From Antedon mediterranea (taxonomy: Eukaryota; Animalia; Echinodermata), in the NCBI RefSeq assembly GCF_964355755.1, contig NC_092672.1:12586001-12650000 (forward strand): DNA of 64,000 nucleotides. Reading direction: 5' to 3'. The notes beneath the pieces are model-generated. The model did no database searches, was not told the DNA's origin, and worked only from the letters and a program-made list of their open reading frames with translations. Both the position numbers and the translations under genes were made by a program. Positions 3,204 through 37,329 of the stretch are shown piece by piece. Within the stretch, counting starts at the first letter, position 1; each line of letters opens with the position of its first letter.

Positions 3204-3297
3204 CTCATTTACGGAGTTCAGAAGATGTGGATATGTTTTACATATTTCTTCAATTTCTTCCAAATCTCCATATCTTACAGCTCTTAGCAATATGTTT
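3204..3297 (-). CDS. N-cap exon of a second tandem ROCO paralog (copy B); the rest lies left of the window; possibly a pseudogene
   Basis: 94 bp with the same splice sites as 37070-37163. Reads NILLRAVRYGDLEEIEEICKTYPHLLNSVNE and lies within the 3.1 kb duplication. Confidence 0.75.
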
Positions 3298-3447
3298 CTG
3301 GAAAAAAAAGAAGATAAAAATGCATCATGGCAAGAATACTCGGTCGATGATGTTAATATGTTTAGTATAGTATGTAGGCATATTAAAAAATTACAAGATT
3401 TGATATTTATTCGAGTAGGCCGACCAGATAAACGGCTCTGCTCTATA

Positions 3448-3655
3448 TCTATATATACATTTATCTAAGGGCAACATTCGGTAAATCGCGCGTTTCTTCT
3501 AGAATGTTTACTCGATGTTATATAAAGTTGGTTTGTACTTTCGGTATTGACTTTAACCACCTGATGTGACCCTGTTTACTAATTAAATTGAGTTAGATAA
3601 TTAGTTATTGACAATTAAACCGAATTTAGGTTCAACAATATTTCTCCAAATAGGG
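3448..3655 (+). mobile_element. Truncated Helitron 5' end (duplicated at 9541-9748)
   Basis: TCtatatatacatttatctaagggcaacattcggtaaatcgcgcg...; a further 3'-part remnant lies at about 3915-4046. Confidence 0.75.
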
Positions 3656-14489: not shown

Positions 14490-14953
14490 TCTCAGTTTTT
14501 TCTCAAAGAGCCCATAAATTTACCTACTTGTGTTAAACCATGGAGGTTCAAAATAGTATTTTTTTAAGAAAATCGGCCGGTCTTCAACATTATGATACTG
14601 TACTCGAGCTGTTCAACCGGTTTTCAGCTATTAAAAACAATTATCGTAGGAGGAGATACGAAAATCCGAAGCATCCTCGTATTATTGTGTGCAGGTATTT
14701 TGTAAGAGGACATCCATTAGACAGTGTATACTACGGTCGGAAAACACCCCTATTTGGGGCAAATCGTTCAACCGAAATTCGTTTTAATTGTCTATAACTA
14801 ATTATCTAACTCAATTTAATTAGTAAACAGGGTTACATCTGGTGGTTTAAATCAGAACCGAGATTCTAACTAACTTTATATACCATCGAGTAAACACTCT
14901 AGAAATAACGCGCGATTTACCGAATTTTGCCCTTATGTAAATTTATATATAGA
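14490..14953 (-). mobile_element. 5' part of the same Helitron family, inverted
   Basis: Reverse complement of TCtatatataaatttacataagggcaaaattcggtaaatcgcgcg... Confidence 0.8.
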
Positions 14954-15652
14954 TTTAACGATAATGCAATGGTACCTCTATGCTTAGTATACCAGTTTAA
15001 GTTTCGTAGCAAATTTCAAGTAGACCCATGCCATCTTGTATATATTATATTATACTGATACAAATTCATAATCAAGCTAACATTAATTGTCAATGTTTTA
15101 TGAGTATTACTAATTCATACTTTAAACGTGTAACCATTGGTAGTGGGTCAAAACTATTTGAACTAAAACAACTATAATACTTGCACTACTTTTAATTTGA
15201 ATTATTATTTCATTTAGGCCTACATATTTGATCTAAATTGACAGTTTATAGTATAGTACACTATAAAACGAACTGCAACTAACACAACTACGTAATACTC
15301 TAATGTAAAGAACTAAAAATAAAACATTTATAAAGAACTTGCAAAAATAATCCACAAACGCTTAAAGTTTACGTCCTTAAGAATAGTACTATGCCTACAC
15401 ATTCTCAAATACGAAAGTTTTACTTGATCATTAAGTATAAACTAATCTAATTAAGTAAATACCAGAATATTATTTAGATGAACTACATCAACCAGGGTAG
15501 CTCCATATAAGGAGACGGAAGACATGTCGATTATTGGACGTTTAGATCTACTTGATTATTTCCAAAGATTATCTTTAATTGGTGTTCCATGTGAGAATTT
15601 TATTAATAAAAATGTCATGAAACATATCGAATTACAGTACATTGTATGTTAC

Positions 15653-15658
15653 TTTATT
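15653..15658 (-). promoter_or_regulatory. Candidate polyadenylation signal (AATAAA) of ROCO copy A
   Basis: AATAAA about 30 nt after the TAA stop. The motif is common in AT-rich DNA. Confidence 0.4.
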
Positions 15659-15690
15659 TGAACACAATCTGGCATTGTACTGGCATTGAT

Positions 15691-16235
15691 TTATAGACGT
15701 AAACCCTTTTTTAGCACCTTGGCTTCGATCATCATTCTGTTCCTTCTAAGTTTATCAATAACTACACCCATGTCATTAAATACATATCTCTTATCCAGTT
15801 CAAACAAGAGGTCCCACACATTTGCTATATGGTCAACTGCAATTTTATACCAACGGCAAATCGTATCTCTCTTATCTAAATTTAACATGCGACCAAATGC
15901 GATCAAATTTTGTCGAAGTTGGGAAAACTTAGTTATTGTGATACCAGTAACGAATCCATTAAAACACGGCATCTTCTGTTTGATGATATTCGCAGCCCCA
16001 TACCATCCACACAAACTGAAACATTCAATGATCAAATCAACATTTGTACTGCTAATACGTCCAGTAGTAACGAGTAATCTGAATAGATTGAATGGTTGTC
16101 CTTCTTTCTCTATGGCTGCTACAGCAATGTCGTTGAAATCTAAAAGTAGTAACTTCAACATGTGTACATTCCCTTCAACTTTTATCCAACTTGACAAGTC
16201 GACAAGAAGTTCCAGAAAGACTTCATCCGAAAGAT
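15691..16235 (-). CDS. Terminal exon: two tandem death-effector-domain-like (death-fold) modules
   Basis: FLELLVDLSSWI..LKLLLLDF..IEK..PFNLFRLLVTTGRISSTNVDLIIECF resembles the DED1 pattern of FADD/caspase-8. FSQLRQNLIAFGRML..NVWDLLFELDKRYVF resembles caspase-8 DED2 (ISAYRVML..NLLDIFIEMEKRVIL). Recognised by eye only. Confidence 0.65.
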
Positions 16236-19200
16236 CTTAGAAAGAAACCAATTTGTTTTTAGTAAAATTTTTATTTTTTCATACAAATTTGATCAATTAT
16301 TCCAAATATCGGAAGAAAAATAAAATAACTAACAATAATTGAAAGCACCAAAAAGCAATGGATATATACGGTTACTGACAAAATGATAATAATAATCTGG
16401 AAAACTTCAGTGATATCCCCACTACCCAAAAAAAAAAACCAAGGGAACTGAAGGATTTCAGACCAATTGCTATCACATCAAACGTTATAAGATGTTTTGA
16501 GAAAATGTTAATTAAACATTTATTTGATATGACTAAACTTTTTCACGACTCATTCCAATTTGATTATCAAGAAAACCGCAGTGTGGAAGATGCTGTGTTA
16601 GTTCACATAAACAGAATATATAGTCACTTAGACAAAAATAGGTCATATGTCAGATCATTATATGTTGACTTTTCCAGGGCATATAACACTGTAGTTCCTG
16701 AACTGCTTATTAGAAAGTTGAATAATATAAACATCAATGCAAATTAATATTTTAAAATGGCTGTATAGCTTTAAGTCCAGACCACAATTTGTAAAATTAA
16801 ACGATATTATGTCAAATGAAAGAGTTGTAAATGTGGGTATACCACAGGGGTGTGTAATTTTGCCAGTACTGTATTCTCTATTCACTGCATGTTTTAGATC
16901 CAAGTCCAAGATGTTTTCGGTAGTTAAATATGCTGACGATACCGTCTTGACTGGCTATATTACCAATGCAGATGAAAATAGTTATAGGGAAATGAGTGAG
17001 GATAACAACTTGAAATTAAATAACAACTTAAACTAAAGAAGTTGTAATTGATTATAGGAAAGAATGTGAACCTTTGATTCCAGTAGTTATAAATGGAGAA
17101 GAAATTAAAATGGTAGAAGAATACAAATATTTAGGATGTATCATTGATCATAAACTTAACTGGAAGACAAACACAGATAAATTAGTTGGTAAAGCATGTC
17201 AAAGAATTTACATATTGCGAAAAATGAAAACGCTCAATATTGATATCACTATTATGGAGTTGTTTTATATGACGATGATCCAAAGTGTATTATCTTACTG
17301 TCTGATTTGTAACTATGGTAATTTATTTAAGAAAGATAAAAAAAGGCTAAATCAAATTGTGAAAGGAGCTGGTAAACTTATAGGCGATATGACAATCTGC
17401 ATGGATGTATTATATAATGATAGATCAATGCAGGCTGCTTTGCGTATAATGGGTGATGATCAGTTTATTCGATCCCGAAGTGGTAGGCTATGTGTCCCTA
17501 AGACAAAAACAAACCGATCCCGTTACGCCTTTATAGCCAACGTCATACATTTGATATACTCACGGCAAAAACGATAGGAAACTGTGTTAACATATCATTG
17601 TGCAATTCTTCATTAAAAGCTTTTAATCTGTATATATTATACTTAACGTAGCTTTTAATGTATATTTGTGTATTTAGTTGACTTTTTATAGATTATAACG
17701 TATTGTAAGATTGTTACCTGTATCCAATGGAGCCAAGGGTAGTCTTTCAGGTAGGCGTACTGCTGTATCAATATCAACTGTACAAAAATAATAATAATGT
17801 TTTTAATGAAATATAACTTGAAAGCACAAATTCAAAAATGTTTTGCTTAATTTGAAAAAAAATAAACCGAAAACATAAATCATTAGTCAATGTTAGTTTA
17901 CTTACGCTTCGCTGTTGTTCCTGTTGGCCCAGTGGCAGCTTCACCTTCTCGTTCAACTGTATCTAATGCGTAACACAGTAATAAACATTACTTACTTTCC
18001 ACTAATTGATTTCAGAATATTGTAAGTGTACACAGTTGAAATTGTATTGATTTATTATTGTGTTGCTATCTATCGTGAATTATACAATGGAAGCATTCCA
18101 TTGCACCAGTGCACTAGAAGGTTAACTTGACATTTAGTGACTATTATCTCCACTATACAAATGTAAGAAATATAGGTCAACATAATATTTATTTATTTTG
18201 TTCAGAAAATGTTAATAACAATGTATACTTTCAACTAACCATCTAAAAGCAGATACTGTAATCGATCAGTTTTCATAGACTTTCTGCCACATGGAACAGT
18301 ATCTTCTTTCAGGCATTTTTCGAGATCGTGTAAATGAATATGTTCTGCTGTATGACAGGCGATACACAACACACGTAGGTTGTAACCAATTCCTTCATTA
18401 GTTTTCAGCACAGTCTTTAGTTGATGCATTAAATATCGTAACACCTACAAACCAATTGATAATAGAAAAGATGAGTTAAAAAACTGTTTTTGTAAAATGA
18501 TTGTAATACTGTAGTTAAAAAGAAACCTTATAATCTTTACCTCAATGCATAAGCTCGGTTGCGGTCCATATATTACCTCTGTGTTATTATCATCAACTTC
18601 AATCCGACGAGATATTTCAAGCTGATGAGAAAAGTTTTCTTCTTTGTTAGTATTATGCCTACATATAGTACACTTACACAAGGGGAGAGTGACAATTTTA
18701 CTCTTCCCTGCTACCCTACCTACTAAAATATTTGGAATGGAATATAAAAGGATCAAAACAATTGACTATCGTGTCGACACTGAATATCAAACATTTTATG
18801 TTATGAACTGACAATTCACTTAATTTCTATACCGCGGGACCATAGTAGGCCTATTATCAAACCGATATTGAAATACAGTATAATATAAGTATAAGTAACA
18901 GTAAATAAGTAAATTATACAATTAATAAATGTAGGTGGTTTGCATTGTGTATTCTCAAGCTAGCGTTTACCACTTAACCTAATTTATGCGTTTACTATTT
19001 ATTTTTAACAGTAGCTTTATACTGCTATACATTAGTGAAATGTTAGTTTCTAACGAATTCATACAATATAACTTTTTATACTGTACCTTTAATGCATGCT
19101 TATTTTCCCTTTGATGCTCAATATTTACGGCACCTAAACGAACTTCATGATCCCCAAAATCAAAGTCACTGCGATTTTGGAACACCACTTGATCACCACG

Positions 19201-22200
19201 CCTACCTTTGCTCTCCATTAAATACAGAAATGCAACAACTAATGTATTGTACACAGCATTAGGCAGAAAGTCAGTAGGTGTAAGATACATCGACAACGTG
19301 TGTTTCTCGTCTTTTTCAACTTTCAGGCTCTCTTTCGTGTTTTGCATTCGAGATGGAACAAGAAACATCCGGTTGTCTTCGCTTTGGTGCTGAGTAAAAA
19401 AAAGTAAAAATTTAGTGTTATGAAAAAGTAACATCGATTTGGAATATGCCTACTATAATAATCTCATATTTAATCAAAAGCCAAGATGCTTAACCTACTT
19501 CTAATTTCTCATAGAGCAAACCAAATGTTTTCATCACTTCAGTAAAGATTTCAAAACGCGTTGAATCTTCATGTAATTCATGTTTCCATAAATGACGTAG
19601 CAATTTTTCCTCAAGTATTCCTTCCTTGTTAAGCTTATTCCATAGCATTCTTAGTTCTTTCTGTTACCAAATAATAAAGAAAAAAATAAAACTTATACAT
19701 ACAGTACACTATAAAAGTGCAATACATTTTCATCAAAACAAGTAATTCGTTTTATATCCACATTGTTTTTTGACAATTATTTTGCTAACCTTATCTACTT
19801 ACCACTTCAATAGTTGGTTCAACTACTGTGATCACTTTTGTCACCATTTCAATCATCATGTAAAGATTTGTTATCACTGTGTTTCTTAATTTCTTGTTAG
19901 TACTTGAATACATGATAACTCCAATGTCATTCAGGTACGCTATGGCAGTGAATAGCCCATCTTTTGAAATTCCACATTCAGTGCCGATTTTAGATGTCTA
20001 ATGCAAATTAATAACAAAATAGAATGTACTGAATTTGATGATTAAATTTTGTTATTTTCCTTTAAAATAATTGTAAACAGCTTATTGTTGATTAAAACAT
20101 AATTTTATCTAACATTCTTCCTTTTGACTAGACATTTTAGAAATCGCATTGTCAAGAAGGCCTATTTCTGGTTAAATGTAACTGTTTCCTTGCATTTTTT
20201 ATATTTATTTTACATTATCTTTGTTCAGTTTTTTTAGGATGATAACTAGCTTTTTATTAACCCTACGAAATAAACAATTCAATGTTTGATTTCATTAATA
20301 ATTTTAGTTGCTCATGTTTTGCGGGAACAACTAAAACAAGAAAAATAGTACAATAGTGATGAAGACTTCCAAATACTAAAAAATGACAAGACATCTATAT
20401 TGACTATTGTAATATTAATTCACATCGCTGGCTCAACAAAGAAATTGGCAACATTACATTGTAGACAGAAATGTGACCTTCAAATTATGACGTTATACAT
20501 TATAATTGTTACCGTATAGTACACTATTTTTAACAAGATAATACATTATTTTTGTACCAGCGTTCATACTCTATATGTGTTTTATAAATCTGTGTTTACA
20601 GTTGTGACAACATAAAATAAACGGTTATACATTTAAAACCAAAATCTTACCTCAGTAAAAGGAATACACAGTGTTGTTTTTCCAATTTCTTGCAACTGTT
20701 CTTGCAAATCCACCCATTTTAATGGAACACTTCTCACCATGGCCTTCATGTAACGACCAACGTTTCTCCTTAGTTGTTTAATACCTTCATGCGATTTTAC
20801 AGTGTTATCCACCATGTACATCTCACGATCTACATGGTCGGCATATGGCATTCCTTCCATTTTTTCAAACATTTTACGAAACTTATCCTCCACTTCCTTT
20901 AATAAAAAGTGTTTTCATAATTACATGCTATAACAACAACAAGAATGTAATTATTCTTACAAACTGTTATTTCATATTCTGATTTGAATAAATCTAACCG
21001 ATAATTAAACTTAATACACGATTTAATATGAGGACCGTAGGCTACGCTATTTATATTTCATCACTGTATCGGTTTTAACTAAATCAGCCTTCGTGTATAC
21101 CACATACCGTTGCAAAATTGTAAGCTTACTTAATGTAAATGTATGTCTGTTACCTTGATCCAATTTTTTGTTTTTGACTTTTTACGAAATGTGTCCATAT
21201 GTGTAGCAACCAAACAGATAGGAGGTGACTCAATGATCTTGCCATCAATATTAATGGGACTTCCTGGACCATGTTGTGCCACAGTATGTTCATAAATGGA
21301 CCTTATCCAGAACATATTCATTTCCAAATTAGTCATTCCTAGTGTACTCTAAAATCACAAATAAAATGCAATCTTATAAAGTAAGCTAAAATATTCTCAA
21401 TAACAAAGATATGCATATTTAATAAAGTGTATTCGAGCAAATAGGTACTGAAGGCACTTACTATTGAATCTCGCGGAATAGCTGGTTCATCCAAGTTATC
21501 ACACGCATTAAACGCTACACAGTAGGATACTCTATTTGTGAGGAAAAACTAAACAAAATACAATTGATAATAATAACTTTTTTTTAATACTCCAACACAT
21601 TTATTAGGATGTGTTAATTGATACATGCACTAATACTTTATTGAAAATGTTATACCACAACACAATGTCGTACTGTAACTATGAGCAAATATCTTTATTT
21701 TTTAATAATCATTTAACATATGAAACAAAAACTATAGAACAAACGAAAAAATACATAAATCAAATAAAATTTTAAAATATAATGTAAAGGTCTGCTTAAT
21801 AAAATTGATACGTAAACAAGCAAATCAAGACCCTTTTTTTAAACATTCAGCAATAAATTTATTTTTAAATTTTTAACACATTTTTAAGTAATAGCAAATA
21901 ACAAAATAGGAACATACCCTATGCGTTATGTAGTAGTCCAGTTGACCTGCGTAGTCCCATATCGTAGTTACGTCACTTGGAATACTTTCTGAATCATCAC
22001 TTTTTACAAATTTCCTAAACATTTTCATCGCCCAAATATCTTTCTGTCTTCGCTTTTTTATTTTAGCAACAACTTTTCTTTGAATTGAGTCGGGAATTGT
22101 CAGATTTTCTTTTAGTTGACTCTCTAAATTCAAATAATGACTACAAATCAATGGGGTGTGTGTAAATTAGATATGGATATTGATAGATGGACTGGTCTGA

Positions 22201-25200
22201 TTTGTTGTGAGTAGACATAATGAATGTTAAAATGGATAAAAAAGTGTATACAATAAATAAATAAATACAACAGTCAGGATGATTAAAGAATTGAACGAGC
22301 AGCGAATATTTTTGATTGCCCAGTTTTAATACCAATGCAATATTTGCATTTTAATACATTTATTTGTTTGCAACAAGAAAAGAAATCTCACTCTTCCCTG
22401 GTTGGACTAACTTTTTGAGAATAAAATTTTCCAGAATGTTTCATAATAATGGTATAATGCCATACATATTATTTCATCAAATATAAAGAAAACCAAATAA
22501 TGAGTCCAACCCTTTCTTGCCGATTCCACTGCCAATGACGTGTAATCAGACTCTCTGGAATCAGATGTAGAAGCCTCGCCTAAAGGAAGTTCGTTGAAAG
22601 ATGTTCTTTCTTTCATCTGTGATGTATTTTCTTCGACTACAGCCTCTTCAAATATTCGCTGGGTTTGCTTGAATCTCGAGTTTTCTGTCGGCGAAAATGT
22701 AAAACAGAAATGATTATTTGTGTCGCGTTGCACTCATAACGGATATAATTGTTATATTATCATAATACTAGAGCACTGAAATATCAATTATTATAGGCCT
22801 GTATAAACTCCACAGTTTAACAAGTACTACTTTATATTAATACTAATGAAACAATAATATAAACAACACTCCTATGAAGTTATAGTGTGCGAATTTCGTG
22901 TTTCTGTCAGCATCAGCATGTATAATACACTACATTAATTTATTATTTACATTAAAATGTTTTATTTACTTTTCTTCAGAAAAGAAATTACTATTTTAGA
23001 TCTTGTCATGCAAATAATTTGTTGTTTATTAATTCGTGCGTGACTTGTTAGGCCTATTAGTAAAGTGATTATATGCGAAACGACCACATTTTTTTATACA
23101 AAATGATCGTCAAAAATATTTAAAAAAATAATCAAACCTTCCACTAAAGACACAGAGTCAGAAGATATAGAACATTCGAAATCAGATATTGAAGGTGTTG
23201 AAACTGCACCTTGTAAATGGAATTTGGTTTCAGTTGACGTTTGTTTTTCCATATTTGCTGTGATGTGTTCAGGCGTTTTCTGGGATGTTCCTGCAATTCA
23301 TTATAATATATTTTTGATACAATATATAGAATGTCTAACATTTCACTTCTATGTATGTTTCTATACTGTATGAGTGCATCTTAACTTGATTATGATCACC
23401 AATACAGTTTGTTTAGAATAATAAAAATACCCTTGTAATAGAAATTATAGTAGATATTCATCATACCTGTTTTTACTGGATCCAAAGAAGAGATTGCTGA
23501 TGATTCCAGTTGGGAATCAGATTTAGATGTTGACATATCTGAACTTCCTTCACCATCATCCATTTCTTCCTTTATTAACTGTGTTGCAAGTTTTTCTGCA
23601 AGTGCATCTTCCCGTATTTCCTTGTTGAGCTCCATAACTGTTAAAAAAAGCAAGGTGAAATAAGGTTGTACGGTACACATCATAGAGATAAATTAAAATA
23701 CTAATATTAGAGAAATGAGATATATCATCAAATCATCATAATCACCTGTAAATAAAATAAATATATCTATATATAAATTTACGTAAGGGCAAAATTCGGT
23801 AAATCGCGCGTTATTTCTAGAATGTTTACTCGATGGTATATAAAGTTGGTTCGTACTTTCGGTACTGATTTTAACCGCCTGATGTAACCCTGTTTACTAA
23901 TTAAATTGAGTTCGATAATTAGTTATTGACGATTAAAACGAATTTAGGTTCAACGATTTGCCCCAAATAGGGGTGTTTTTCGATCGTGGTATACACTGTC
24001 TAATGGATGTCCGTCTTGAAAAATACCCGCAGACGATAATACGAGGATGCTTCGCATTTTCCTATCTCCTCCTACGATAATTGTTTTTAATGGCTGAAAA
24101 CAGGTTGAACAGCTCGAGTACAGCATCATAATGTTGAAGACAGGCCGATTTTCTTTAAAAAATACTATTTTGATAGATTTAAAATACGTTTATACAAATG
24201 TATTGATTTGCGATGAATGGAACATTCTAATCTCTGTTCCACAAGCGTCTATTCCCTCAGGCGTCGTAAAGGCAACTACTGTATACTCATAACAGAAATT
24301 CGATCCATTTTTTTTTCAATCTGTGCTGCAGAGGTTGGATATAATTTTTTTTTAAACGGATAAAGAGCTAGCGTTTTCACTCGCCGTATATTATGTATAA
24401 ATCTTTATTATTGCAGTTAAACCACCCACATCATCACCCTTCCCTCACTGGCATGAGTAGCGTTGTAAAACCAGTAGAGGAAAGGCCTACGGTACATCAT
24501 ATGCCCTAAACGCAGAACAACTTTGGTGGGTAGGCGGGTGTGTAGGGTAGGAACCAACTTTAGTATGAATTGGCTCTAGGAAACAATTGAAAACCATTAG
24601 GCCTACTAATTAAGTTGAGTTAGATAATTTAATATTTATTGACGATTAAATCGAATTTATGATTTTCCCTGAATAGAGTTGGTTTTCACAAATTGTTTTA
24701 CATTATATAAACATATACACGTCGTAGTGATGTATCGTTACATGTAGGGGCTACTGTACTATTTTAATCGACTAGGACGGTGATAGTTTCAACAAAGTTT
24801 TACTGTGTTTAGTGGTATATTATTTGTAAAATATGAAAACAATAATAATAATAATAATAACTGGTACTTGATATAGCGCATTATGCTAAAAGCCTCAATG
24901 CGCTTTACAAAGACAGAACAATTTAGAAATTTACAAATTAAAAAGTGGGTTTTGAGGAGAGATTTGAAGACACTGGTGGAAGTAGCCTGACGGATTTCAA
25001 TAGGCAACGCATACCATAGAGAAACGGATGCCGAAGAAAATGAACGATTTCCATAAAACTTAGTGGAAGGATGAAATATATGGGCAAGAAGAGACTCAGA
25101 TCTAGATCTCAGAGACCGCTTAGGAACATAAGGTTGAATAAGTTCAATTAATATTTCGTTACTAAATGGATAAAGAATGATATTTAAAAAGTGTTCCTCT

Positions 25201-28200
25201 TTGCACCCATCCTTTTCCCCATCCCTCAACCCTAATGTTACATACAAAACACAAATCAAGTTTGTTTAAATTTGACTTAAACAATTGGTCTCATTTTGTG
25301 ACAAGTTTCTCTTTCGGAAGTAATTCCCATGGTGCTAATTTTAGTTGAGTACATAAATTACAGTGTCTATTTATTCGTTCCTGTAGGCTGTAAACGACAT
25401 GTATTATTGTCCTGCGGTACGTACATTTGAAATCGCCAGTTTTTTAACGCTGAAATTATTATGTATTCGAGAACCATCTGTGGGCACGACCTAGATGGTA
25501 CGCGAGCGAAGCGAGCGTACCATCTAGTGTAGGTAATTTATGTAATTACAGACCAAAATGCATTTAAGTATTTAATAAAAATATTATTTCCAATGTACCT
25601 TACCGGTACGTTTTTACCCTTATCATGAAACTAATTAATCTCTATACACAAATTGGCCAAATCAGGCAATTTTGTTGAAAGAAGAAGAAAGAGAGAGTTT
25701 CTCTCTTTTGTGGGGACAGCCCACTTTGAACGAACAGGTAATGGGTCATTTGGTATGGTTGACTTCTTCTTTTCAAACTTACCGTTGATATCTTCCTTCT
25801 TCCACTTTTCACAGTCTTTTCCAATTGCTTGAAACACTGTCGTTGTAATAACAATACCATCAGTAGATGGTTCGTTGGATTTAAATCTATAATAATGAAT
25901 AATAATGAACTCCAAAAGGTCAGATTTAAAGAAAGTAGAATGTATCCAATAGTTCATCTTAAAATATTAATATATTTAAAATAAAAACACAAATAAATAT
26001 AAATATTTTCTGATAAGAAATGTTATGCCATGACTATTATAGAGAACATGAATACACGATTTGAAATAAATTAGCACTTTATCTATTGTAATGGTAAAAA
26101 CACCATTCAACTTGTATTATAAATGCTGTATATTGATGAAGATGATGTATATTTTATTTTATAAAATAACTTTGTTCTTTTGTTACCTTTGTCCAAGCAT
26201 GGCCTTTACACAACTAGTTTTTCCAGCACCTTCTTTCCCGAGAAACATACATCTTGAATTTACAACTGCAATCTCGCCATTTTCAAGTTCATTTTGAAAT
26301 GATCTAATTGCGCTCTCACCTCTAGCTAATATTTCAACTGGAACTAAATTGCAATTAAAATAATTGCAAAATATACAAAAACAAATACAAATATTTTGAA
26401 TCAATTCAAAGCCATAGTTTTAAAAATGTCATTATGCTCTCATCTTCGTCACATTCGTACAGTTCAAAAGTTCAGTACAATGTTAAATATGTGTCATTAG
26501 TAATACACAGTTTAATATTCATGAGCAAAACTCAATCAAAGTGTATTAATAAAAACTTACTGTCAAGTAACTCCAATATCTTATTTTTCTTTTCTTTGGA
26601 GATATCACTATTATCCTTCAAAAGAGATGCTGGTGTTTTTCCTCGCTATACAAAAAATTGTATTAAAGTATTATCCACTGTTACTTTACTAATCTATATA
26701 TACATTTACGTAAGGGAAAAAATCGGTAAATCGCCTCTTACTTCTAGAATTTTTACTCGATGGTATATAAAGTTGGTTCGTACTTTCGGTACTGATTTTA
26801 ACCACCTATGTAACTCTGTTTACTAATTAAATTGAGTTAGATAATTATTTATTGACGATTAAAGCGAATTTACGATTTGCCCCGAATAGAGGTGTTTTTC
26901 ACAAATTGTTTTACATTATATAAACACTATACAAATAAACTTTATTACCGACAGTTGCTTCTCAATGTTTGTATTAATTAATAATGTAATTACAAAAAAA
27001 ATATAAACGTCGTAGTGGTGTATCATTACATGTACTGTACTTTAATCGACTATGACGGTGACAGTTTCAACAAAGTATTAAATCGCAATGTTTTAATGTA
27101 TTTAGTGGTATATTATTTCTAAAACATGAAAACAGTTAATATTTTGTTACTAAATGAATAAAGAATATATTAACAAATTGTTCCTCTTTGCACTCATCTT
27201 CTTTTCCATCCCTCAACCTTAATGTTACATACAAAACACAAATTAAGTTTGTTTAAATTTGACTCAAACAATTGGTCTCATTTTGTTTCTCTTTTGGAAG
27301 TAATTCACAGGGTGCTAATTTTAGTTGAGTACATAAATCACCGTTTTTATTTATTCGTTATTGTAAATGACATTTATTGTCCTGTGGTACGTACATTTGA
27401 AATAGCCAGTTTTTTAACGCTGAAATTACTATGTATTCGAGAAGCATCTGTGGACGACCTAGATGCGAGCGAAGCGAGTAAACTAGTAATTTACATAATC
27501 CGGATTGTAATAAACACATGCATTTAAGCTAATAGTGTGCACACGTTAATATGACACAATCTGAGTACCTTTGCACTAACAAACAACAATATTAACTGCT
27601 GTGATTGAATACACTTAGTCTTAGTCTTTAAAAATCTCTCAAAACCCACATTTTGAATTTTTAATTTTCTAAATTGTTCTGTCTATGTAAAGCTCATTAA
27701 GGCTTTCGGCATAATGCGCTGTACCAAGTACCAGTTATTATTATTAAAAATGCTATTGAAAAAAATATTATAAAAGAATAATCGATACTGTATTAAATGT
27801 ACATGTTAATTATCGCATCTATGATAATTTACCACCACTAGCAGTAACTCGTGCTCCGCATGGTCTTTGTCGGCTTTAGTATATGATTATATACTAATTC
27901 GCATGGGATGAGTAAGTATCATATAAGCGCACTCTTCCCTCATAAAACGCCATGGATTTTGTTATACACCAAGTATTCCTTCACTTTTAAGTAACTATGA
28001 GCTACAAAATAAAAGCAATACTGGATATGGGACTTTACGAAAATGGAAAAATTGTGCTGTGTGAATAAGATGATGCGCGCAATAACATAACGAAAGTATA
28101 AAACGGCGAACTATATTATTTTGGGTGTTTTTCGTGGTGTATTAATTATTATTTTGATACATTGAAATAAAAAGTGAACAAAAATCGAACGGAATAGAAA

Positions 28201-31200
28201 GTGCAGGAGATTAAAACATTTTTGAATAAATAAGTATTGGAATAAATCAACACAAAAAATAGTCGAAATTTGACGATGCGTTCGGACACAAACTATTACT
28301 TTTTGGGTGTATTTTTTTTGAGACGTCAAATTACTGCTATTGTTTGCCTTTTTTAGTGTTTATCCTTAAAATTCAGGAAAGTGACATAGCCTATCGTGTG
28401 CGGCCCATCAATAAACATCAGTGTGCCAAATGTGAGCACGTACCGTTCGGTGGCTTTGGAAGAGATACATAAAATTAAAAAAAATTTAGTAGCATTGATA
28501 TTTATTTGCTAACATAATGTCTTCAAACAATTGGCGCCCTTTCTGATATTGTTTGGCTCCATCAAGATAATGATTACTGTGTATTAGTTAACACAAGATT
28601 TGTAATATTTTAAGTTGATAGATACTCCTAATCAAAATAAGAGTATACCATGGATATAGGCGTAATGGTTTGCTTAATAAGCACAATTTAAAAATGCAAA
28701 TGCAATGTTGCTGCATTAATTGACGGTACCTTGTTTCTTGCTTTAAGTGATGCTCCGTGGGCTATGAGACTGTTCACTGTTTCTATATTACCATTACTGC
28801 CAAACCTAACGTGTACATGTAGCGGTGTGTTTCCAAACTGAAAAGCAAAAAGTTTTATGTAGGCCTATAATAATATACATTTTACACTTTAGATACTAGA
28901 ACTAAAGTTTAAACAAATTTAATATTGTATTCGTATCCTACAATTATAACAAGCAATTAACTACTACATCTAATGTATTGTATATTTTGCTTCTCGTGGG
29001 CTACTCGTCTTTCAGTAGGTAACTTTGATGATCATCCCTGCCAAATCGCCAGGACTTGTCTGGCGGGTGTAGGCGATTATACAAGTACAATTATTTAAAC
29101 TCTAGAGGCAACTGGAAATGCGTCTGGCAGGTGGACAGCCGGGAATGACAGCCGGGGTGTGAAGCATATGTTTATCGATTATAGAATGAAAGTTAGATGA
29201 TAAATCTGAATTGGGGTAAAAAATTGACTTCAGTAATGTAAACGGAGTCCCATCCTTTTATTACGTTTCATGAAATCATACACATAAGCGCCATTATTGG
29301 TTCGGCATCATAGTCCGCAAGGTCTATGGTCAAAAAATTGTTAAGTAAATGGAGTATTTTGTTATTTGTCTACGATAGACCACAGTATATTATACAACTA
29401 GTTGATTTAATTGGGACGTGGAGAGGTGTTAGTAATGAACATAATTTTAAAAGTATTGGTATTAACGTCTTGTTAAATGCGACAGCTATATGATGTTTAA
29501 AATACTTTAAACTTATATTTACTTTGATAAATAAATATGACTTTTCACAATTAAAATAAATTAAACAACTCCAAGGTTTGTTTATACGGGAGCTTATTTA
29601 GATTAACTTATATTGCTGACTAATACAAATAATAACGTAAATGATTTTTTAATTATTTTAAAAGAGTAATTTACATTGTTTGTTATATAGATACAGACGG
29701 GTTAGCACTGAACACATTTTAAAGTATTAATTTAGCGTCTTGTTCAATCTAAAACGCTACAGGTATACGATTTTTAATATCTATATATAAATTTACGTAA
29801 GGGCAAAATTCGGTAAATCGCGCCTTACTTCTAGAATTTTCACTCGATGGTATGTAAAGTTGGTTCGTACTTTCGGTACCGATTTTAACCGCCTGATGTA
29901 ACCCTGTTTACTAATTAAATTGAGTTAGATAATTAGTTATTGACGATTAAAACGAATTTAGGTTCAAAGATTTGCCCCAAATAGGGGTGTTTTCCGATCG
30001 TGGTATACACTGTCTAATGGATGTCCATCTTGAAAAATACCCGCCAAAAAAATGCGAGGAGGCTTCGCATTTTTCTATCTCCTCCTACGATAATTGTTTT
30101 TAATAGCTGAAAACCGGTTGAACAGCTAGAGTACACCATCATAATGTTGAAGACAGGCCGATTTTCTTTAAAAAATACTATTTTGATAGATTTAATATAC
30201 GATTATACAAATGTATTGATTTGCGATGAATGGAACATCCCAATCTCTCAGTCTGCCAGAGTTCGGTTTAACACAAGTACTGCAGGTAAATTTATGAGCC
30301 CTTGGTTTAACACATACGGTAGGTAAATATATGGGCCCTTTGAGAATAAACTTGCAATACTTTGACAATACTGTAAATACCTATTAACTATTTTTCATTT
30401 GAATCGAACATTTCTTACTGTGAATGTTCGTACTGTTAGATGTAATATAAAAATATATACAAATAAACTTTATTACTGAGACTGTGGATAGGCTCTACTG
30501 TTAGATATACAAATAAACTTTATACTGACAGTTCCTTCTCAACGTTTGTATTAATTAATAATTACCAAAAATATAAACGTCGTAGTGGTGTATCGTGACA
30601 TGTACTTTAATATTTCAATCGATTATGACAGTGACAGTTTTAACAAAGTATTAAATCGCAAATGTTTTAGGCCTACTGTATTTAGAGGTATATTATTTAT
30701 AGGCCTATAAAACATGAACAAAATATTTCGTTACTCAGTGGATAAAGAATATATTTAAAAATTGTTCCTCTTTGTACCTATCCGCTTTCCCATCCCTCAA
30801 CCCTAATGTTACATAGCGAGGAGGCTTCGCATTTTCCTATCTCCTCCTACGATAATTGTTTTTAATAGCTGAAAACCGGTTGAACAGCTAGAGTACACCA
30901 TCATAATGTTGAAGACAGGCCGATTTTCTTTAAAAAATACTATTTTGATAGATTGCTAGAGTACACCATCATAATGTTGAAGACAGGCCGATTTTCTTTA
31001 AAAAATACTATTTTGATAGATTTAATATACGATTATACAAATGTATTGATTTGCGATGAATGGAACATCCAGTTTGGTTTAACACAAGTACTGTAGGTAA
31101 ATTTATGAGCCCTTGGTTTAACACATACGGTAGGTAAATATATGGGCCCTTTGAGAATAAACTTGCAATAGGTTCGGAAAATGTTAAAAACCAATTTCTA

Positions 31201-34200
31201 TTATTTGAATCGGTAAACAGTTTCCATTTATTATACATTGATAATGAAACATGAAATATTCCTATTTATGTCCCTCGAGGTTCATTACAATTTATATTTA
31301 GTAGTCCCACGGACTTCATCTTAGCCACTCCCCCGAGTGCTAAGGCCAAATTTATGATACCTTACTTTCTATGTAAGTTTAGTTACAGTTAGTTCTTGAC
31401 GATAATACAACGAATTTAGGTTACACCCTTCGGCCGCGAAAACGTTTCTGTACAAATATGATACCGATTGGCTTTATTTCATTCAACAGCGACCATAATC
31501 TCGCCAATTACAGGATAGATAAACTATTTTATTATTGATGTGCTTATAAATTAAGACTCATGTAACCAGCTTGATTACATCATTTTACAGACAAACGAAA
31601 CTTTTTTAAACCTACTGTTTCAATAACTGAGTATAATACTGTATACGTTTTCATAAGTAAGTGCATATACATTTTCGTGTTTTCATTGACGAGATTGTAA
31701 TAGTAACTTCAGTAACTATTACAGTACTTATTTATTATACGACACAAGACAATTGTATCTGACAGGTACGTACATTATTCTAAAAAATAAGTCTAGATAG
31801 ATCCCTTGGGCGTCATAAATCACAGGCCAACAAATCAGTACTCATGACAGAAATTCGACCCAGTTTGGTTCACACAAATGTTTACAGGAAGTTCAACACC
31901 ACAACCGATGATTTGCCCTAAATATTTAGGTAGACTACAGTTTAATTTTTCACTGAATAGGAGCTTGAATTTCCGATTTCCATTTCGCAGAATGTCTAGG
32001 TCTATTTATTTAGTTTGGTTCTTATAATATAAATACAATCAACTTTATTACTGCGGTTCCATCACCACCACCACGTGCCGCCGCCCAATTCCCGTACATA
32101 CATTTCCATTTCTCCCTAATTTCTTTAATCCACATAAATTAATTGTCCTTTATGGAATCCAGTATTGGTTTTGTTGTCTCTATTTCTGAATACCCCAATT
32201 AGGGGGACACTTCCGTTTTTGTTTAGTGTCCCAAAAAAGTCCCCGTCCGTGGATTCTACTGTATTCGAGAACCATCTGTGAGCACCCCTAGATGGTACGC
32301 GAGCGAAGCGAGCGTGCCATCTAGTATTTTAAATTATACTTAATTTGCTTTGATAATAACTATAGGCTACACATGTTCACAATGAAAAGCACATTAAATC
32401 TATGGGATTTGCTTATAACGGGACATAATTTAAATTAACTTTGTAAAAAAGAGTTTTTTGTGTAAAAGAGTAATTTACATTGTCTGTTGCTGTGACTGAT
32501 GCTCCGTGAGCTATGATACTGTTCAATATCTCTACATTACTATCGGCAAACGAAACGTGTTTATGTAGCGGTGTCCTTCCATACTGATGGAAAGAAGAAA
32601 ATTAGATTACAGTATTAAACTTGAGACATTTTTTAAGAATATATGTATTATTATATTATAATATTTATCCATTTCTACATTCATTTTCTAATTAATTAAG
32701 AGTGAATGTGAATTATATAGAAAAACCTATTATTAAGAAAATAACAAAACTTGTTGATTTTAATTATTATTATAATACAGATGGGCTAGTAATGAACACA
32801 TTTTAAAAGTATTAATTTAGGCTCTTGTTCAATCTAAAACGCTACAGCTACACAAGTTTTAATATATTTTAAATTGTATTTTTGCTTTGATAATAACTAT
32901 ACATTTTTCAAATGAAAAACACATTAAACGAATCTAGAGTTTGTTTATAACGGGAGATAATTTAAATTAACTTGTAGTGTTAACTATATACAAATAATTA
33001 CGTTATTGATTTTTAAATCATTGTAAAAGAGTAATTTACTTTGTCTGTTGCTGTGATTGATGCTCCGTGAGCTATAAGACTGTTCACTATCTCTACATTA
33101 CCCCCGCCAGACCTAACGTGTTCATGTAGCGGTGTGTTTCCATACTGGAAAGAAGAAAGTTAGTATTATTATATTTCATATTTTTCTTTTCTACATTCAT
33201 TTTCTAATTCATTAAGAAGGAATGTAAATTATATAGAAATACCTGGTATTAAGAAAAAATGACTAACTGATTTCAATTAAGACATTCAGAGGATTTAGCA
33301 ATGAACATCATTTTGAAAGTATTGATGTTAGCGTCTTATTTAATCTCAAATTCCATCTTCCTTTTTATAGTTATAATATTCCTAGTCTTAGTTTAGTCAC
33401 AATGTGTCTATGTTTTTAATTTTAATTAAGTATTCTTCTGAAAAGAAGAAAGTTAGATTAAACTTGGCGCATTTTTTAAAGAATACAGGTATTATTATAT
33501 TACATATTTATCCTTTTCTATAATCATTTTGTAATTTATTAAGAGTGAATGTAAATTATATAGAAAAATCTAGTATTAAGAAAATAATAAAACTTGTTTA
33601 AAAAGTATTGATTTAGCGTCTTTTTCGATCTAAAACCCTACAGCTACACGATTTTCAATATATTTTAAATTGTATTTTTGCTTTGATAATAACTAAACAT
33701 TTTTCCAATGAAAAACACAATAAACGAATCTATGGTTTGCTTATAACGGGAGATAATGTAAATTCACTTGTAGTGTTAACTAATACGAATAATTACGTTA
33801 ATGATTTTTAAATCATTGTATAAGAGTAATTTACATTGTTTGTTGCTGTGATTGATGCTCCATGAGCTATAAGACTGTTCACAATCTCTACATTACCCTG
33901 GCCAGACCAAACGTGTCTATGTAGCGGTGTGTTTCCATTCTGGAAAGAAGAAAGTTAGTATTATTATATTTCATATTTATCCTTTTCTACATTAATTTTC
34001 TAATTCATTAAGAGGGAATGTAAATTATATAGAAATACCTGGTATTAAGAAAATAATGACTAACTGATTTCAATTAAGACATGCAGAGGATTTAGCAATG
34101 AACATCATTTTGAATGTATTGATGTTAGCGTCTTGTTTAATCTAAAATTCGACAGCTGTGTACATGATATTTAAATATCGTAAATTATATAGTGATCGTT

Positions 34201-37200
34201 AATAACTTTAAATAATATAATTTATTAAATTAATAAACATATTCCTACGTCTAGACATCTCGTTTAGATTCAAGTAAACTTAATGAATACTGAATTTGGA
34301 GATCTGTATGTATTTACCAAACCGCCTTCAAAACATAATTGCAAATTCCAACAATACACACTACGGTGAATTCAATAAATATTTTGTTATATTATTAATC
34401 TACTATCCATCCCACCTTCATCCTACAATTAAAAAAAATATTACGTAATTCGTTTCTCCCATTTGCTATGAGGCTTTTGAATGCAAGCTGTGGATGCTTG
34501 CCAACGTCGCACAACATGCTCGTTTAACTAACAAATAAACAAGTAGCAAAATCTGTCTCTTGGAAGAGAGATGAGGATCTCAAAATCACGATAAATGCGT
34601 TAAAATTGAATCAAACAACAATAATAACAAACTACTATTTAACAACAACAATGTATCTCGTCTCTTTCCCTCTCAACCTTGCCGTTAAATAATTATAGAG
34701 GGGGTAGTTTCAATTAACTTTGGCAGACGGCAAACATACAATGTATAGAGTGCGTTTAAATATGTTCTGAGCTTAGTAAAGAGATCAGTATTTGTAGTAG
34801 ACATAAGGACAATATATTTTAATTTAGATGGATTATTTGTGTAATAGGATCGAAAACATATACTTAGTTCTACTATCTGAATAAACTAAAAGGAATTCAT
34901 CTTCAATTGATTGTAGAGAGCAAAATTTGCATAGTCTATCATTTCTATTAGGCCTAATACGATTCAATCTTCATTTTTCTTGTTATAATATTCCTAGTCT
35001 TAGTTTAGTCACAATGTGTCTATGTTTTTAATTTTCATTAAGTATTCTTCCATAATTCCAACATAATTTACATTGAATGCGTGTGAAATATTGGAGCTTA
35101 TAAGAGTGTAACCAATTATCTCATAGAATTGTGTCGTTCAATAAGCCTCGCCTTTGTTTAAATTTTGAAATAAAAAATATTGTTGACATGTTGAGCATGC
35201 CATGTTGCCAAATCCATTTATACATAATAAGTTTTCCATCATTGACCTAAATCGCTCATTTTGTTGCGTTTTTCTATGTTGAAAATCATAACATTGTTTA
35301 AGGAATTTTTCATAATCTATTTGGCTTACTCTCAGCCACTAACGAATTCAATTAATGATACTTGGAGTTTGGATAGGAAATCCTCGACATTCTCCTTTCA
35401 GTACATCACTTGGTGCAGAATTTTCTATTCCTAAAAGACATTTTTATTTTAAAATCAAAATATAATCCAAGTGGTATGAAGAAATTGTTCATCTACTGGA
35501 AAACTACAAGTCAGTCGATGCTACAAACCACATTATATCTCAGATGCTAGTGAAGTAGTATGTGGTCAATGCACGTATTTAAGATTGATGACTCATGATA
35601 ATATTCTATTTCTCTACTATTAGCTAACGCCAAAGTTACCCCAGCTAAAAAAAACAAGGTATCAAGTGTATGTAGCTAACCGGGTACAACAAATCAACGA
35701 TGCAACTTCCATAGAAAACATCTTCTAATCCGAGTGATATAGTCAGTAGAGCCGTGCGTGCTAACAGTAAGCAATTGATTTCAGATACCGGATGGGTGAG
35801 TTGTTCTACACTTCTTCACCAGGTAGTTCTTAACAAACAAAGGCGGTTGGCCGAAATCGATGACGAATCGCGTATAAGGTTGTTGCTTCAGAACTAAAAT
35901 ATATTCGCTCATTCCACACTAATGCTGACAAAGTTGTTTCAGAATGGGTTTATAACAGACAGATAAAATGAACTATAAATCACATTAAATGTATTGAATG
36001 TTCATTCCCCTAAAGGAGCCAACACGTTGTAAGGCATATTTTTTAGATATGCCTATCAATGGTAAACTTAACAGTGATATAAGACAACAAAACACATGCA
36101 ATAATTTAATATGAAAAGATTGGTGTGGTGATATTGCAAGGAGCCATGTAAATGGCAGTATATATTATATAATTCGCTGTCAGATGATACTTCACACTTG
36201 AATGAAGTATCTAGGCATGATGAAGTGACCCACAGACTTGACCTTAGAAATAAGATAAACTAAAGTGACTGATATGAAACACAGACTCTGTAACAAAAAA
36301 ATAATATTTGTATTTGTAAAAAAAGAAAAGAAACGTTTAATTATAACTCAAAAACCATTGTCTGACAGACAATTTAAGTATTTTTTGCTTTAAATTACAT
36401 TTTTTTCAGGTAAGATAACTATTATGTGACAATAAAATGACACAATCAAACACAAATTTGAAATAAAAAATATTTTTCAGAGGGACAATATATCTTTAAA
36501 ACTGTTACGTCAATAAGCGAGCAGCGTTTTTTTTAAGAAATTTTTCTTGTAGATATGCCTATCAATGAAAAGCTTAACAGTGATCTAAGACAACAAAACA
36601 CATACAATAATTTAATATGAAAAGATTTGTGTAACTTTTGCAAGGAGCCATGTAACGGCAGTATGTGTAACTGAGTTAATGATTATGTAATTTTTGTTGA
36701 AGATAAAAACCATGTTAGCCTGCGTATATTAGATATCTCACTAGCTAGTGTAGTTAGTTGAGACGATTCTATCGTTAGATGTATTGCGATTTCTAAATGT
36801 TATGTCATACTATTATACAATAAATTATCTCCATTGTGGCATGATTACACGCACGCATTCTGTCTTTCTATTACGTTTTATCTCAACTCAAAGAAGTGGC
36901 AAGTGAGGCCGTAGTTATAGTATAGAGTAGATTGTTTGTTTGTTATTGGTTCTTAGTAAATGTTGTCATACATTATATAAACGTTTTCGTGTTTTTCACC
37001 CTTGAGTTTACCGTAAATATGGTGATGATTTATATCATATTCAAATTCAAATAAATATAATTTCTATACCTCATCTACGGAGTTCACAAGATGTGGATAT
37101 GTTTTACATATTTTTTCAATTTCTTTCAATTCTCCATATTTTACAGTTGTTAGGAATACGTTTCTGAAAAAAAAAAGAAGATAAAAAATAATCATGGCTA

Positions 37201-37329
37201 GAATACTCGGTCGATGATGTTAATATGTTTATTTGTCATGTTTCTAAACAATAATAAATACAATTTTCTTTGAACTATTTAAAATATTATACGTTTGTTG
37301 GATGTAAAATATAAAGCTTACTTCTCCAT
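15691..37329 (-). CDS. ROCO-family protein: ankyrin repeats - Roc GTPase - COR - Cys/His module - tandem DED-like domains (24 coding exons, 1236 aa; copy A)
   Basis: Manual splicing, all GT-AG with matching phases: 37329-37322, 37163-37070, 33939-33835, 33144-33040, 32583-32479, 28837-28730, 26645-26561, 26343-26187, 25886-25783, 23637-23467, 23290-23138, 22684-22511, 22123-21918, 21548-21462, 21348-21154, 20896-20651, 19997-19803, 19660-19499, 19389-19087, 18621-18541, 18444-18240, 17962-17906, 17777-17718, 16235-15691. Total 3711 nt with no internal stop. Motifs: GNTPLH (ANK), GKEGAGKTS (P-loop), STDGI (switch I), WDYAGQLDYYITHRFFLT (Roc G3), PPICLVATHMD (G4), VPLKW and YLNDIGVI (COR). The small linker exons and the start codon are less certain. 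Confidence 0.88.
16399..17577 (+). mobile_element. Degenerate non-LTR retrotransposon RT (Rex1/Babar-like), antisense in the last ROCO intron
   Basis: WKTSVISPLPK..DFRPIAITS, YVDFSRAYNTV, GIPQGCVI, KYADDT, YKYLGCIIDHKLNW; several frameshifts. Confidence 0.88.
18240..20896 (-). CDS. Exons encoding the end of Roc, the COR domain and the following Cys/His module
   Basis: VDNT..VPLKWVDLQ; AIAYLNDIGVIMY..LRNTVITN; GILEEKLLRHLW..MKTFGLL; FLVPSRM..FLPNAVYNTLVV are typical COR blocks. The last exon has CIACHTAEHIHLHDLEKC...C. Confidence 0.82.
21154..26343 (-). CDS. Exons encoding the Roc GTPase domain of ROCO copy A
   Basis: IPVEILARG...MFLGKEGAGKTS (26343-26187); FKSNEPSTDGI (25886-25783); IWDYAGQLDYYITHR (22123-21918); FFLTNRVSYCVAFN (21548-21462); FWIRSIY...PPICLVATHMD (21348-21154). 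Confidence 0.9.
23766..25527 (+). mobile_element. Non-autonomous Helitron with both termini, containing a nested LINE fragment
   Basis: a|TCtatatataaatttacgtaagggc ... 13-bp stem ctagatggtacgc/gcgtaccatCTAG|t; no TSD. Confidence 0.85.
24841..25150 (-). mobile_element. 3' end of an L2/CR1-group LINE nested in the Helitron
   Basis: PYVPKRSLRS..YGNRSFS..LW.ALP.EIR..FKSLLKTH followed by a (TTA)n tail. Absent from the sister Helitron at ~27130. Confidence 0.8.
26693..27486 (+). mobile_element. Non-autonomous Helitron, internally deleted copy
   Basis: a|TCtatatatacatttacgtaaggg ... gcgagcgaagcgagtaaaCTAG|t; internal homology to 23766-25527. Confidence 0.82.
27622..27745 (+). mobile_element. Short 3' end of the same L2-like family
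   Basis: Reverse-complement match to 24841-24970, ending taccagttattattatt. Confidence 0.7.
28730..28837 (-). CDS. Ankyrin-repeat exon 4 (FGNTPLHVHVRFGSNGNIETVNSLIAHGASLKARNK)
   Basis: 108 bp phase 0-0 exon. The next exon, 26645-26561, begins RGKTPASLL (C-cap). Confidence 0.9.
29780..32324 (+). mobile_element. Non-autonomous Helitron (2.5 kb, with internal duplications) in an ankyrin-cassette intron
   Basis: TC...hairpin-CTAG termini. The flanks rejoin to ttaata|tattttaaatt, matching the uninterrupted sister introns at ~32860 and ~33655. Confidence 0.88.
32479..32583 (-). CDS. Ankyrin-repeat exon 3 (YGRTPLHKHVSFADSNVEILNSIIAHGASVTATDN)
   Basis: 105 bp phase 0-0 exon, cag/gtaaat. Confidence 0.9.
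33040..33144 (-). CDS. Ankyrin-repeat exon 2 (YGNTPLHEHVRSGGGNVEIVNSLIAHGASITATDK)
   Basis: 105 bp phase 0-0 exon, cag/gtaaat. Confidence 0.9.
33835..33939 (-). CDS. Ankyrin-repeat exon 1 (NGNTPLHRHVWSGQGNVEIVNSLIAHGASITATNN)
   Basis: 105 bp phase 0-0 exon with the GxTPLH...GNVEIV..LI.HGA ankyrin consensus. Confidence 0.9.
34445..34527 (-). pseudogene. Degenerate ankyrin pseudo-exon
   Basis: 83 bp between tag and gtaat. Reads LNEHVVR in one frame and KSLIANG in another (compare LHEHVR...NSLIAHG). The copy-B counterpart (about 637-1171) is split by two insertions. Confidence 0.5.
37070..37163 (-). CDS. ROCO copy A coding exon 2, ankyrin N-cap (KNVFLTTVKYGELKEIEKICKTYPHLVNSVDE)
   Basis: Poly-T + CAG acceptor and GAG|gtatag donor. 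In phase with the upstream ATG GAG AA|gtaag (37329-37322). A paralogous exon is at 3204-3297. Confidence 0.8.

Follow-up and report, generated by a model that had tools for sequence, protein, structure and literature searches.

What would an animal do with a GTPase of the ROCO type whose chain appears to end in a pair of death effector domains like that of caspase-8? The question is raised by a stretch of 64,000 nucleotides of the crinoid Antedon mediterranea (NCBI RefSeq assembly GCF_964355755.1, contig NC_092672.1, positions 12,586,001 to 12,650,000 of the forward strand). This whole stretch is called the window below, and all coordinates refer to it. A minus-strand gene of 24 exons, running from an ATG at 37329 to a stop codon at 15691, encodes ankyrin repeats, a Roc-COR core and, in the last exon, a predicted tandem death effector domain (tDED). 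We lean towards the view that the protein is an intracellular immune or danger/cell-death receptor, a function proposed from the make-up of the protein and of its relatives.

The core leaves little room for doubt about the family. Pfam recognises Roc (E 3e-10) and COR-A (E 3e-16) above the cut-offs and COR-B weakly (E 0.015), and Roc is followed directly by COR, the arrangement that defines ROCO proteins. The AlphaFold model of the corresponding RefSeq protein (XP_071944627.1, here P0002) is matched in fold by LRRK1, LRRK2 and the Chlorobium Roco, with E values of about 1e-14. All the motifs that we take to be G1 to G5 are present, i.e. G1 GKEGAGKTS (amino acids 239-247), G2 T264, G3 WDYAGQ (512-517), G4 THMD (603-606) and G5 VDN (648-650), and they are conserved across the family: 24 fetched rows, one of them the window's own record, include the G1 region, and 23 keep the pattern GxxGxGKT. 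G2 is separated from G3 by a low-complexity insert of 166 amino acids (291-456), rich in Ser, Thr and Glu, which has a predicted local distance difference test score (pLDDT) mostly under 50 and would be largely disordered according to the model; the sequence-only reading introduced below makes no mention of it. No LRR, kinase or WD40 family match was found in P0002 or in the scanned exons. An earlier reading made from the letters alone (the sequence-only reading) had named ankyrin repeats, Roc motifs G1 to G4 and a COR domain and had seen neither LRR nor kinase; Pfam and AlphaFold agree with it, COR-B remaining weak and G5 being an addition. The window protein is a real ROCO, and it is not a DAPK1, an LRRK or an NLR.

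The tail is the second defining part. Its structure model (pLDDT 92) is helical throughout, and all 24 rows shown by Foldseek were caspase-8, cFLIP or vFLIP tDED entries (best template modelling score 0.75, E 1.3e-3). A second aligner, which re-scored Foldseek's own 194 matches, placed the tail on the caspase-8 tDED with Z 17.4 and a root-mean-square deviation of 2.4 over 165 aligned residues; the tDEDs of cFLIP and vFLIP followed with Z 13-15, death domains reached 8.8 and unrelated proteins 3.3 or less. The sequence-only reading had seen two DED-like modules in the final exon and had named its failure to model as two death folds as grounds for giving up the proposal; the model superposes on the whole caspase-8 tDED. 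On the sequence side, the match to caspase-8 obtained with a profile built from 19 members of the family spans residues 3-164, which cover both DEDs, with E values from 8e-8 to 2e-6, and the Atlas placed the tail with echinoderm DED clusters (0.93, recognition slightly below the mark). A profile comparison fails to align the first half of the tail with the second (hhalign probability 0.6%), yet the structure model still has two DEDs. The assignment of the last exon to a caspase-8-type tDED stands as a predicted fold. Other identities tried for the tail were set aside: a Death domain, CARD or PYD gave a lower Z and half the length, and a DED followed by TRADD-N disagrees with an all-helical model.

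The gene is intact, with its frame open across all 24 exons and every G motif kept. The model was built from the sequence before the annotation was viewed; its 23 introns are all of the GT-AG type and the single uninterrupted frame codes for 1236 amino acids, exactly the length of the spliced frame that the sequence-only reading had proposed independently. RefSeq P0002 (1110 amino acids, Antedon mediterranea, 'uncharacterized') is the same gene, starting at exon 5, and 18 of the 19 junctions that it spans agree with our model. The exception lies in exon 11, where P0002 has an earlier donor, whereas our donor at 23138 is backed by the run X1. No run is recorded as RNA; X1 was treated as such because its contigs skip GT-AG introns. 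Exons 1-4, which are missing from the RefSeq model, were placed by the open frame and by the paralogs P0170, P0009 and P0010, which have the same start. Two AATAAA signals (15658 and 15604) lie downstream of the stop codon. A stop-containing frame near 28590-28490 was rejected as an exon, being unneeded for the frame and absent from RefSeq. The parts of the gene are as follows.

37329-37322 and 37163-37070, minus strand: exon 1 (ATG micro-exon) and exon 2, N-terminal ankyrin cap, amino acids 1-34 (open frame, GT-AG, paralog starts).
33939-33835, 33144-33040 and 32583-32479, minus strand: exons 3-5, 105 nucleotides, phase 0, one ankyrin repeat each (Pfam Ank).
28730..28837, minus strand: exon 6, fourth ankyrin repeat, 108 nucleotides, phase 0 (Pfam Ank, E 5.5e-6; included in P0002).
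26561..26645, minus strand: exon 7, C-terminal ankyrin cap and linker (RefSeq junctions; 86% to P0004).
26343-26187 and 25886-25783, minus strand: exons 8-9, Roc G1 P-loop and G2 (X1 loose end at exon 9).
23637-23467, 23290-23138 and 22684-22511, minus strand: exons 10-12, Ser/Thr/Glu-rich insert (X1 joints; pLDDT under 50).
22123-21918, 21548-21462, 21348-21154 and 20896-20651, minus strand: exons 13-16, Roc G3, G4, G5 and start of COR-A (X1).
19997-19803, 19660-19499, 19389-19087, 18621-18541 and 18444-18240, minus strand: exons 17-21, COR-A and COR-B (Pfam, fold match, X1).
17962-17906 and 17777-17718, minus strand: exons 22-23, short phase-1 linker exons (RefSeq junctions; X1 contig).
16379-17574, plus strand: broken reverse-transcriptase fragment of the long interspersed nuclear element (LINE) type, in three frames, in the last intron, the one that precedes the tDED exon (Pfam RVT_1, E 6e-12 and 2e-5).
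15691..16235, minus strand: exon 24, the whole predicted tDED, amino acids 1056-1236, phase-1 acceptor, with the stop codon.

X1 contigs were mapped on 15300-23700. Eleven of the 15 listed joints fall on introns of the model, and two loose ends fit two further introns (the end of exon 13 with 13 of 13 letters, the end of exon 9 with 28 of 30), i.e. splicing is seen from exon 9 through exon 24. Among exons 1-9 the RNA contigs show no junction, as repeats at 23.3-32.5 kb swamped the mapping; this does not speak against those junctions. One contig joins exon 21, exon 22, the last exon and the 3' region. It is of the sister type P0001, a COR-bearing Antedon mediterranea protein that a search with the last exon had found at 92% identity and whose cluster includes P0002. 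The contig has 58 differences from the window over about 860 letters; of those listed, 16 lie in the stretch of coding sequence on display, and the amino-acid changes agree with P0001 in all 10 that were checked. An exon 23 of the P0001 type would fit the overhangs of this contig (GT after exon 22, AG before exon 24), and skipping would not. The sequence-only reading had singled out the splice from 17718 to 16235: the join of COR to the last exon holds, in a contig of the sister type, while the letters of exon 23 itself are unplaced. Contigs of the window type were found for exons 15-17 and 19, each exon showing 0 or 1 differences. At 88.8, the depth of the tail-bearing contig is close to that of the two COR types taken together (53.1 and 36.4), which hints weakly that in the X1 animal a P0001-type tail is common to both. 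P0170 and P0001 may belong to a single sister gene that the annotation has cut in two, since X1 has a P0170-like end of exon 9 together with P0001-like COR and tail. The reverse-transcriptase frames of the last intron were rejected as part of the gene, as the X1 contig skips them.

The window gene belongs to an expanded family, whose sizes are given here as lower bounds from word-limited searches, not as a genome-wide count. The Roc-COR search returned at least 43 proteins, 35 of them named as crinoid (14 Antedon, 21 Anneissia; P0001 included). A tDED follows COR in 29 of the 51 fetched COR-bearing rows that either have a crinoid name or were supplied by the tDED search, as opposed to none of the 20 others; the 29 include the record of the window gene, and 12 isoform rows were removed. 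Further tails in the family are Death (P0019, P0037), HEPN_DZIP3 (P0015, P0021) and tDED-ZU5-tDED (P0012). P0015 and P0021, both from Anneissia, carry one or two terminal HEPN_DZIP3 domains, a possible RNase output. A profile search, in which the best 7980 candidates were scored, reached molluscs, amphioxus (ankyrin-Roc-COR) and bacteria, all without a tDED, and the Atlas clusters nearest to P0002 consist of mollusc, sponge and arthropod proteins of the ankyrin-Roc type (0.92-0.97), two of them automatically named DAPK1-like; the kinase-less ANK-Roc layout itself looks widespread. A second family copy lies in the window itself: 237-3364 (minus strand) is a 5' piece, 88-96% identical to 34045-37231 with the introns included, which has a homolog of exon 2 at about 3305-3204, lacks the exon-1 stretch, has a repeat just upstream and runs out of the left end of the window. 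The genes are therefore clustered in tandem.

In this family the tree of the tails conflicts with that of the cores. Over most of exons 9-18, P0003 and the window gene share 91-98% identity, compared with 26% in the tail; for P0004 the values are 92-98% in most of exons 8-14, 48-69% in COR and 29% in the tail. In the Roc-C/COR-A tree the window gene groups with P0003, P0001 and P0005 (96/96), whereas in the tail tree it groups with P0001 and the DED-only protein P0045, encoded on another contig (100/100), and P0003, P0004, P0005 and P0013 fall with more distant ROCOs. The approximately unbiased (AU) test rejects holding these six ROCO tails (of the window gene, P0001, P0003, P0004, P0005 and P0013) together (p-AU 2e-71); the trees have 17 and 37 rows of our choosing, and the tested group was named after the identities and a quick 154-row tDED tree had been seen. 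The likeness to P0045 begins in linker exon 23, similar to the linker that precedes the tDED of P0045 (54% identity over 195 amino acids). We infer that the window lineage probably acquired its last two exons from a P0045-like gene by exon exchange, a direction read from a COR tree without an outgroup root; the paralog models are automatic.

At the other end of the protein, the four ankyrin exons score above the Pfam Ank cut-off (22-30 bits vs 21.1), and the ankyrin part of the P0002 model (mean pLDDT 69) matches DARPins. Each repeat is one phase-0 exon, four in the window gene and six in P0170. Exons 3 and 4 lie within a 769-nucleotide unit whose copies are 85% identical, introns included, and exons 3-5 evidently arose by tandem duplication of an exon-plus-intron unit. 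A decayed unit of this kind lies at 29420-29780 (minus strand), its last codons and donor being left near 29684-29659. Among the eight 35-residue units of the window gene and P0170, positions 1, 8, 11 and 14 carry 5-6 different residues and most scaffold positions 1-2. The variable positions cluster in the hairpin and where helix 1 ends. The positions randomised in DARPin libraries vary in 6 of 6 cases among the four exons vs 11 of 29 other positions (Fisher p 0.008), and the proportion of nonsynonymous differences (pN) is 0.41 at surface codons (a somewhat wider set of 9, taken from the DARPin pattern) vs 0.077 in the scaffold, with a whole-exon ratio to synonymous differences (pN/pS) of 1.2. 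The variable surface is only suggestive of a sensor: the sets were chosen after the sequences had been seen and the exons are related to each other, which counts against that reading.

The tDED is not confined to ROCO proteins. A search of the 50% library gave 100 relatives of the tail, all of the 20 looked up being crinoid; the same tDED was found on NACHT proteins in 14 of 37 scanned, as well as on a caspase-8-like protein (with two tDEDs), a DDX58-like helicase, and Rel, TIR, kinase, USP and NHL proteins. Individual examples, all of them crinoid proteins encoded outside the window, are P0114 (RIG-I-like helicase), P0115 (Rel homology domain), P0075 (caspase with two tDEDs), P0098 (TIR), P0057 (kinase) and P0134 (ubiquitin protease); the fusion to Rel looks unusual. 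Crinoids seem to use the predicted tDED as a general connector of immune proteins, and no other indirect argument speaks as strongly for a ROCO tail that would feed immune or death signalling. The crinoid's own expanded tDED proteins, including those with outputs other than caspases, are likelier partners than FADD or caspase-8, whose direct recruitment the sequence-only reading had suggested.

Within the receptor reading we infer ligand sensing, GTP-dependent activation, DED polymerisation and the identity of the partners as follows. The variable ankyrin repeats would recognise a trigger, either microbial or arising from damage, upon which Roc-COR would change its nucleotide state, cluster the protein and bring the tails together; the predicted tDED tails would then seed assemblies of the crinoid's own DED proteins, and these could activate a caspase-8-like enzyme, leading to death, or Rel-type signalling. 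Relative to an NLR the order is inverted, with the sensor first, the effector last and a GTPase in place of the NACHT ATPase. The sequence of sensor, switch and effector gains indirect support from the expansion of the family, the exchanged tails, the variable ankyrin surface and the presence of the tDED on NLR, RIG-I-like and caspase-8-like proteins. A broader version of the idea is tentative, and we would not yet favour it: crinoids might have a second, GTPase-based class of NLR-like receptors, with dozens of ANK-Roc-COR genes, DARPin-like single-repeat exons, a cassette output exon (tDED, Death, HEPN) exchanged between unrelated genes and a lineage-wide DED network of NLRs, RIG-I-like helicases, caspase-8 and Rel. 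If true, these would be the first Roc-COR proteins of animals in which filament nucleation could report the switch directly, free of a kinase.

Several points weigh against the receptor reading. By sequence alone the support for the tail is weak: Pfam DED matches the last exon with E 0.068 and in the first half only, the single tail sequence finds no match in PDB, and a second profile made from the tail only reached just the FADD DED (E 0.04). X1 shows the last exon of the sister type but not that of the window gene itself; the paralog architectures come from automatic gene models, some of them partial or possibly fused; and the caspase-8-like protein that was found comes from the other of the two crinoid species. 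The hydrophobic FL motif and the E/D-RxDL charge triad, which we take to be the hallmarks of DEDs, appear to be altered as well. DED1 has LKLLL where FADD has LKFLC (L for the F of the FL motif), and no R-x-D-L was found at the end of either DED, the register of DED2 not being aligned residue by residue. Human-type contacts therefore need not hold. Finally, tDEDs can inhibit as well as activate, as those of cFLIP and vFLIP do.

This last point leads to another explanation, in which the tail is a damper or decoy that caps or diverts DED assemblies in the manner of cFLIP and the viral FLIPs and so tunes or blocks death signalling. The cFLIP and vFLIP tDEDs match the tail model nearly as well as caspase-8 does (Z 13-15), the closest relative of the tail is the DED-only P0045 and the apparently altered motifs point the same way; against this, a variable repeat array fused to an intact GTPase suggests a triggered output, and HEPN or Death domains in the tail slot of paralogs fit an effector position. 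We consider the damper rather unlikely. A kinase-less scaffold akin to DAPK1, acting in stress, autophagy, wounding or regeneration and recognising no microbe, is more unlikely again. It would have the same domain order as DAPK1 behind its kinase (PMC4917528; this and all later comparisons hold for the available parts of the cited papers), and the Atlas neighbours of P0002, with their two DAPK1-like names, fit it, but dozens of copies, with repeats varying in number and surface and with exchanged tails, would be unexpected in a housekeeping protein. Least probable among these explanations is that the gene is a by-product, unselected for recognition, of a recombining cluster in which conversion and unequal crossing-over generate mosaics; the copy in the window, or its first four exons, may then see little use. 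The neighbouring 5' piece without its first exon, the decayed end of an ankyrin exon near 29680, the many partial family models, the omission of exons 1-4 from RefSeq and the exact tail unseen in X1 could all be explained in this way; an open frame over 24 exons with all G motifs kept, the splicing of window-type COR exons in X1 and ankyrin scaffold codons that stay conserved while surface codons change speak against it. The reading as a candidate receptor is the one that we prefer.

The remainder of the window holds two intronless frames on the plus strand, 44422-45807 and 49009-50451 (462 and 481 amino acids), which encode immunoglobulin-domain proteins (Pfam Ig, E 0.007 and 5e-17, respectively) and lie head to head with the ROCO gene. 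Very high-copy dispersed repeats are found at 23300-32500, 3444-3655, 9537-9747 and 14548-14958, with a depth of up to 1e6 in DNA-like runs; such repeats occupy several introns in the window.

It is useful to compare the window protein with systems that are already known. DAPK1 consists of a kinase, a calmodulin site, 10 ankyrin repeats, Roc-COR and a death domain (PMC4917528). The sequence-only reading had counted DAPK1 among proteins of other architecture, which does not hold for the part downstream of its kinase, since ankyrins, Roc-COR and a death-fold domain follow in the same order. The likeness is one of domain order: the window protein has no N-terminal Ser/Thr kinase of the DAPK1 type, its paralogs open with the same ankyrin cap, a predicted tDED stands for the single death domain, and the four single-exon repeats belong to a multi-copy family with exchanged tails.

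LRRK1, LRRK2 and MFHAS1, the last with the domain layout that we presume for it, share the Roc-COR fold, whereas the window protein has no LRR, kinase or WD40 match and ends in a predicted death-fold tail. With NLRs (STAND) it shares a repeat array as putative sensor, an NTPase switch and a death-fold effector in one chain, as well as the lineage-specific expansion; its core is Roc-COR instead of NACHT/NB-ARC. By analogy, the protein may be functionally NLR-like though it is not an NLR.

Prokaryotic proteins proposed as counter-invader systems and immune switches combine LRR, an AP-GTPase (Roc), COR and a variable effector; there are at least 24 kinds of effector, and a single bacterium has 11 paralogs (Kaur et al. 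2021, PMC8195603); they resemble the window gene in their fast-evolving repeats, Roc-COR and interchangeable C-terminal effector, and differ in that the window gene is animal, has ankyrins in place of LRRs, a putative tDED effector and intron-bounded modules. The LRR-ROC-COR proteins of brown algae, the only arrangement reported there, are candidate immune receptors (Teng et al. 2024, PMC11378527). They too are kinase-less and expanded, with one repeat per exon and diversifying repeats, though their LRR exons are of 72 nucleotides and phase 2 and no death-fold tail follows, as opposed to 105 nucleotides and phase 0 for the ankyrin exons here. In the animal Trichoplax the ROCO genes number at least 17, and CARD and death domains occur next to ROC-COR; the repeats named in the available text are TPR and LRR, not ankyrin, and the term DED is absent from it (Civiero et al. 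2014, PMC4104024).

The tail has its own relatives. The tandem DEDs of caspase-8, cFLIP and vFLIP, known from tDED filaments (PMC11874512), have the same two-domain fold as the model of the tail, with about 15% identity to caspase-8 and canonical surface motifs that appear altered in the window protein. Invertebrate sensors, namely DED-NACHT NLRs (PMC2575513) and DED-bearing RIG-I-like receptors (PMC8662601), also signal through a DED, the window tDED differing in being C-terminal and attached to a GTPase core. In the literature searched, supplements being outside its scope, we found no description of an ANK-Roc-COR-tDED protein or of a crinoid ROCO (the source-data tables of PMC8195603 could list some), and the available parts of PMC12373286 and PMC11463336 hold nothing on this architecture.

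Each ingredient thus has a precedent and the protein is already in RefSeq as uncharacterized; what is new is a variant of receptor-like ROCOs. Beyond the sequence-only reading, the analysis adds the expansion in two crinoids, the conflict between tails and cores, the organisation of one repeat per exon with a variable surface, and the tDED on other immune proteins, the last of which suggests that crinoids have an immune wiring based on DEDs, so far undescribed. For LRRK2 and DAPK1 it is still to be settled what Roc-COR does independently of the kinase, and a natural kinase-less Roc-COR joined to a predicted death fold would offer a readout as simple as the presence or absence of a filament for tests of the nucleotide switch. 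If the receptor reading is true, the idea of ROCO proteins as immune receptors, so far put forward for bacteria and brown algae, would extend to animals, with closely related paralogs at hand.

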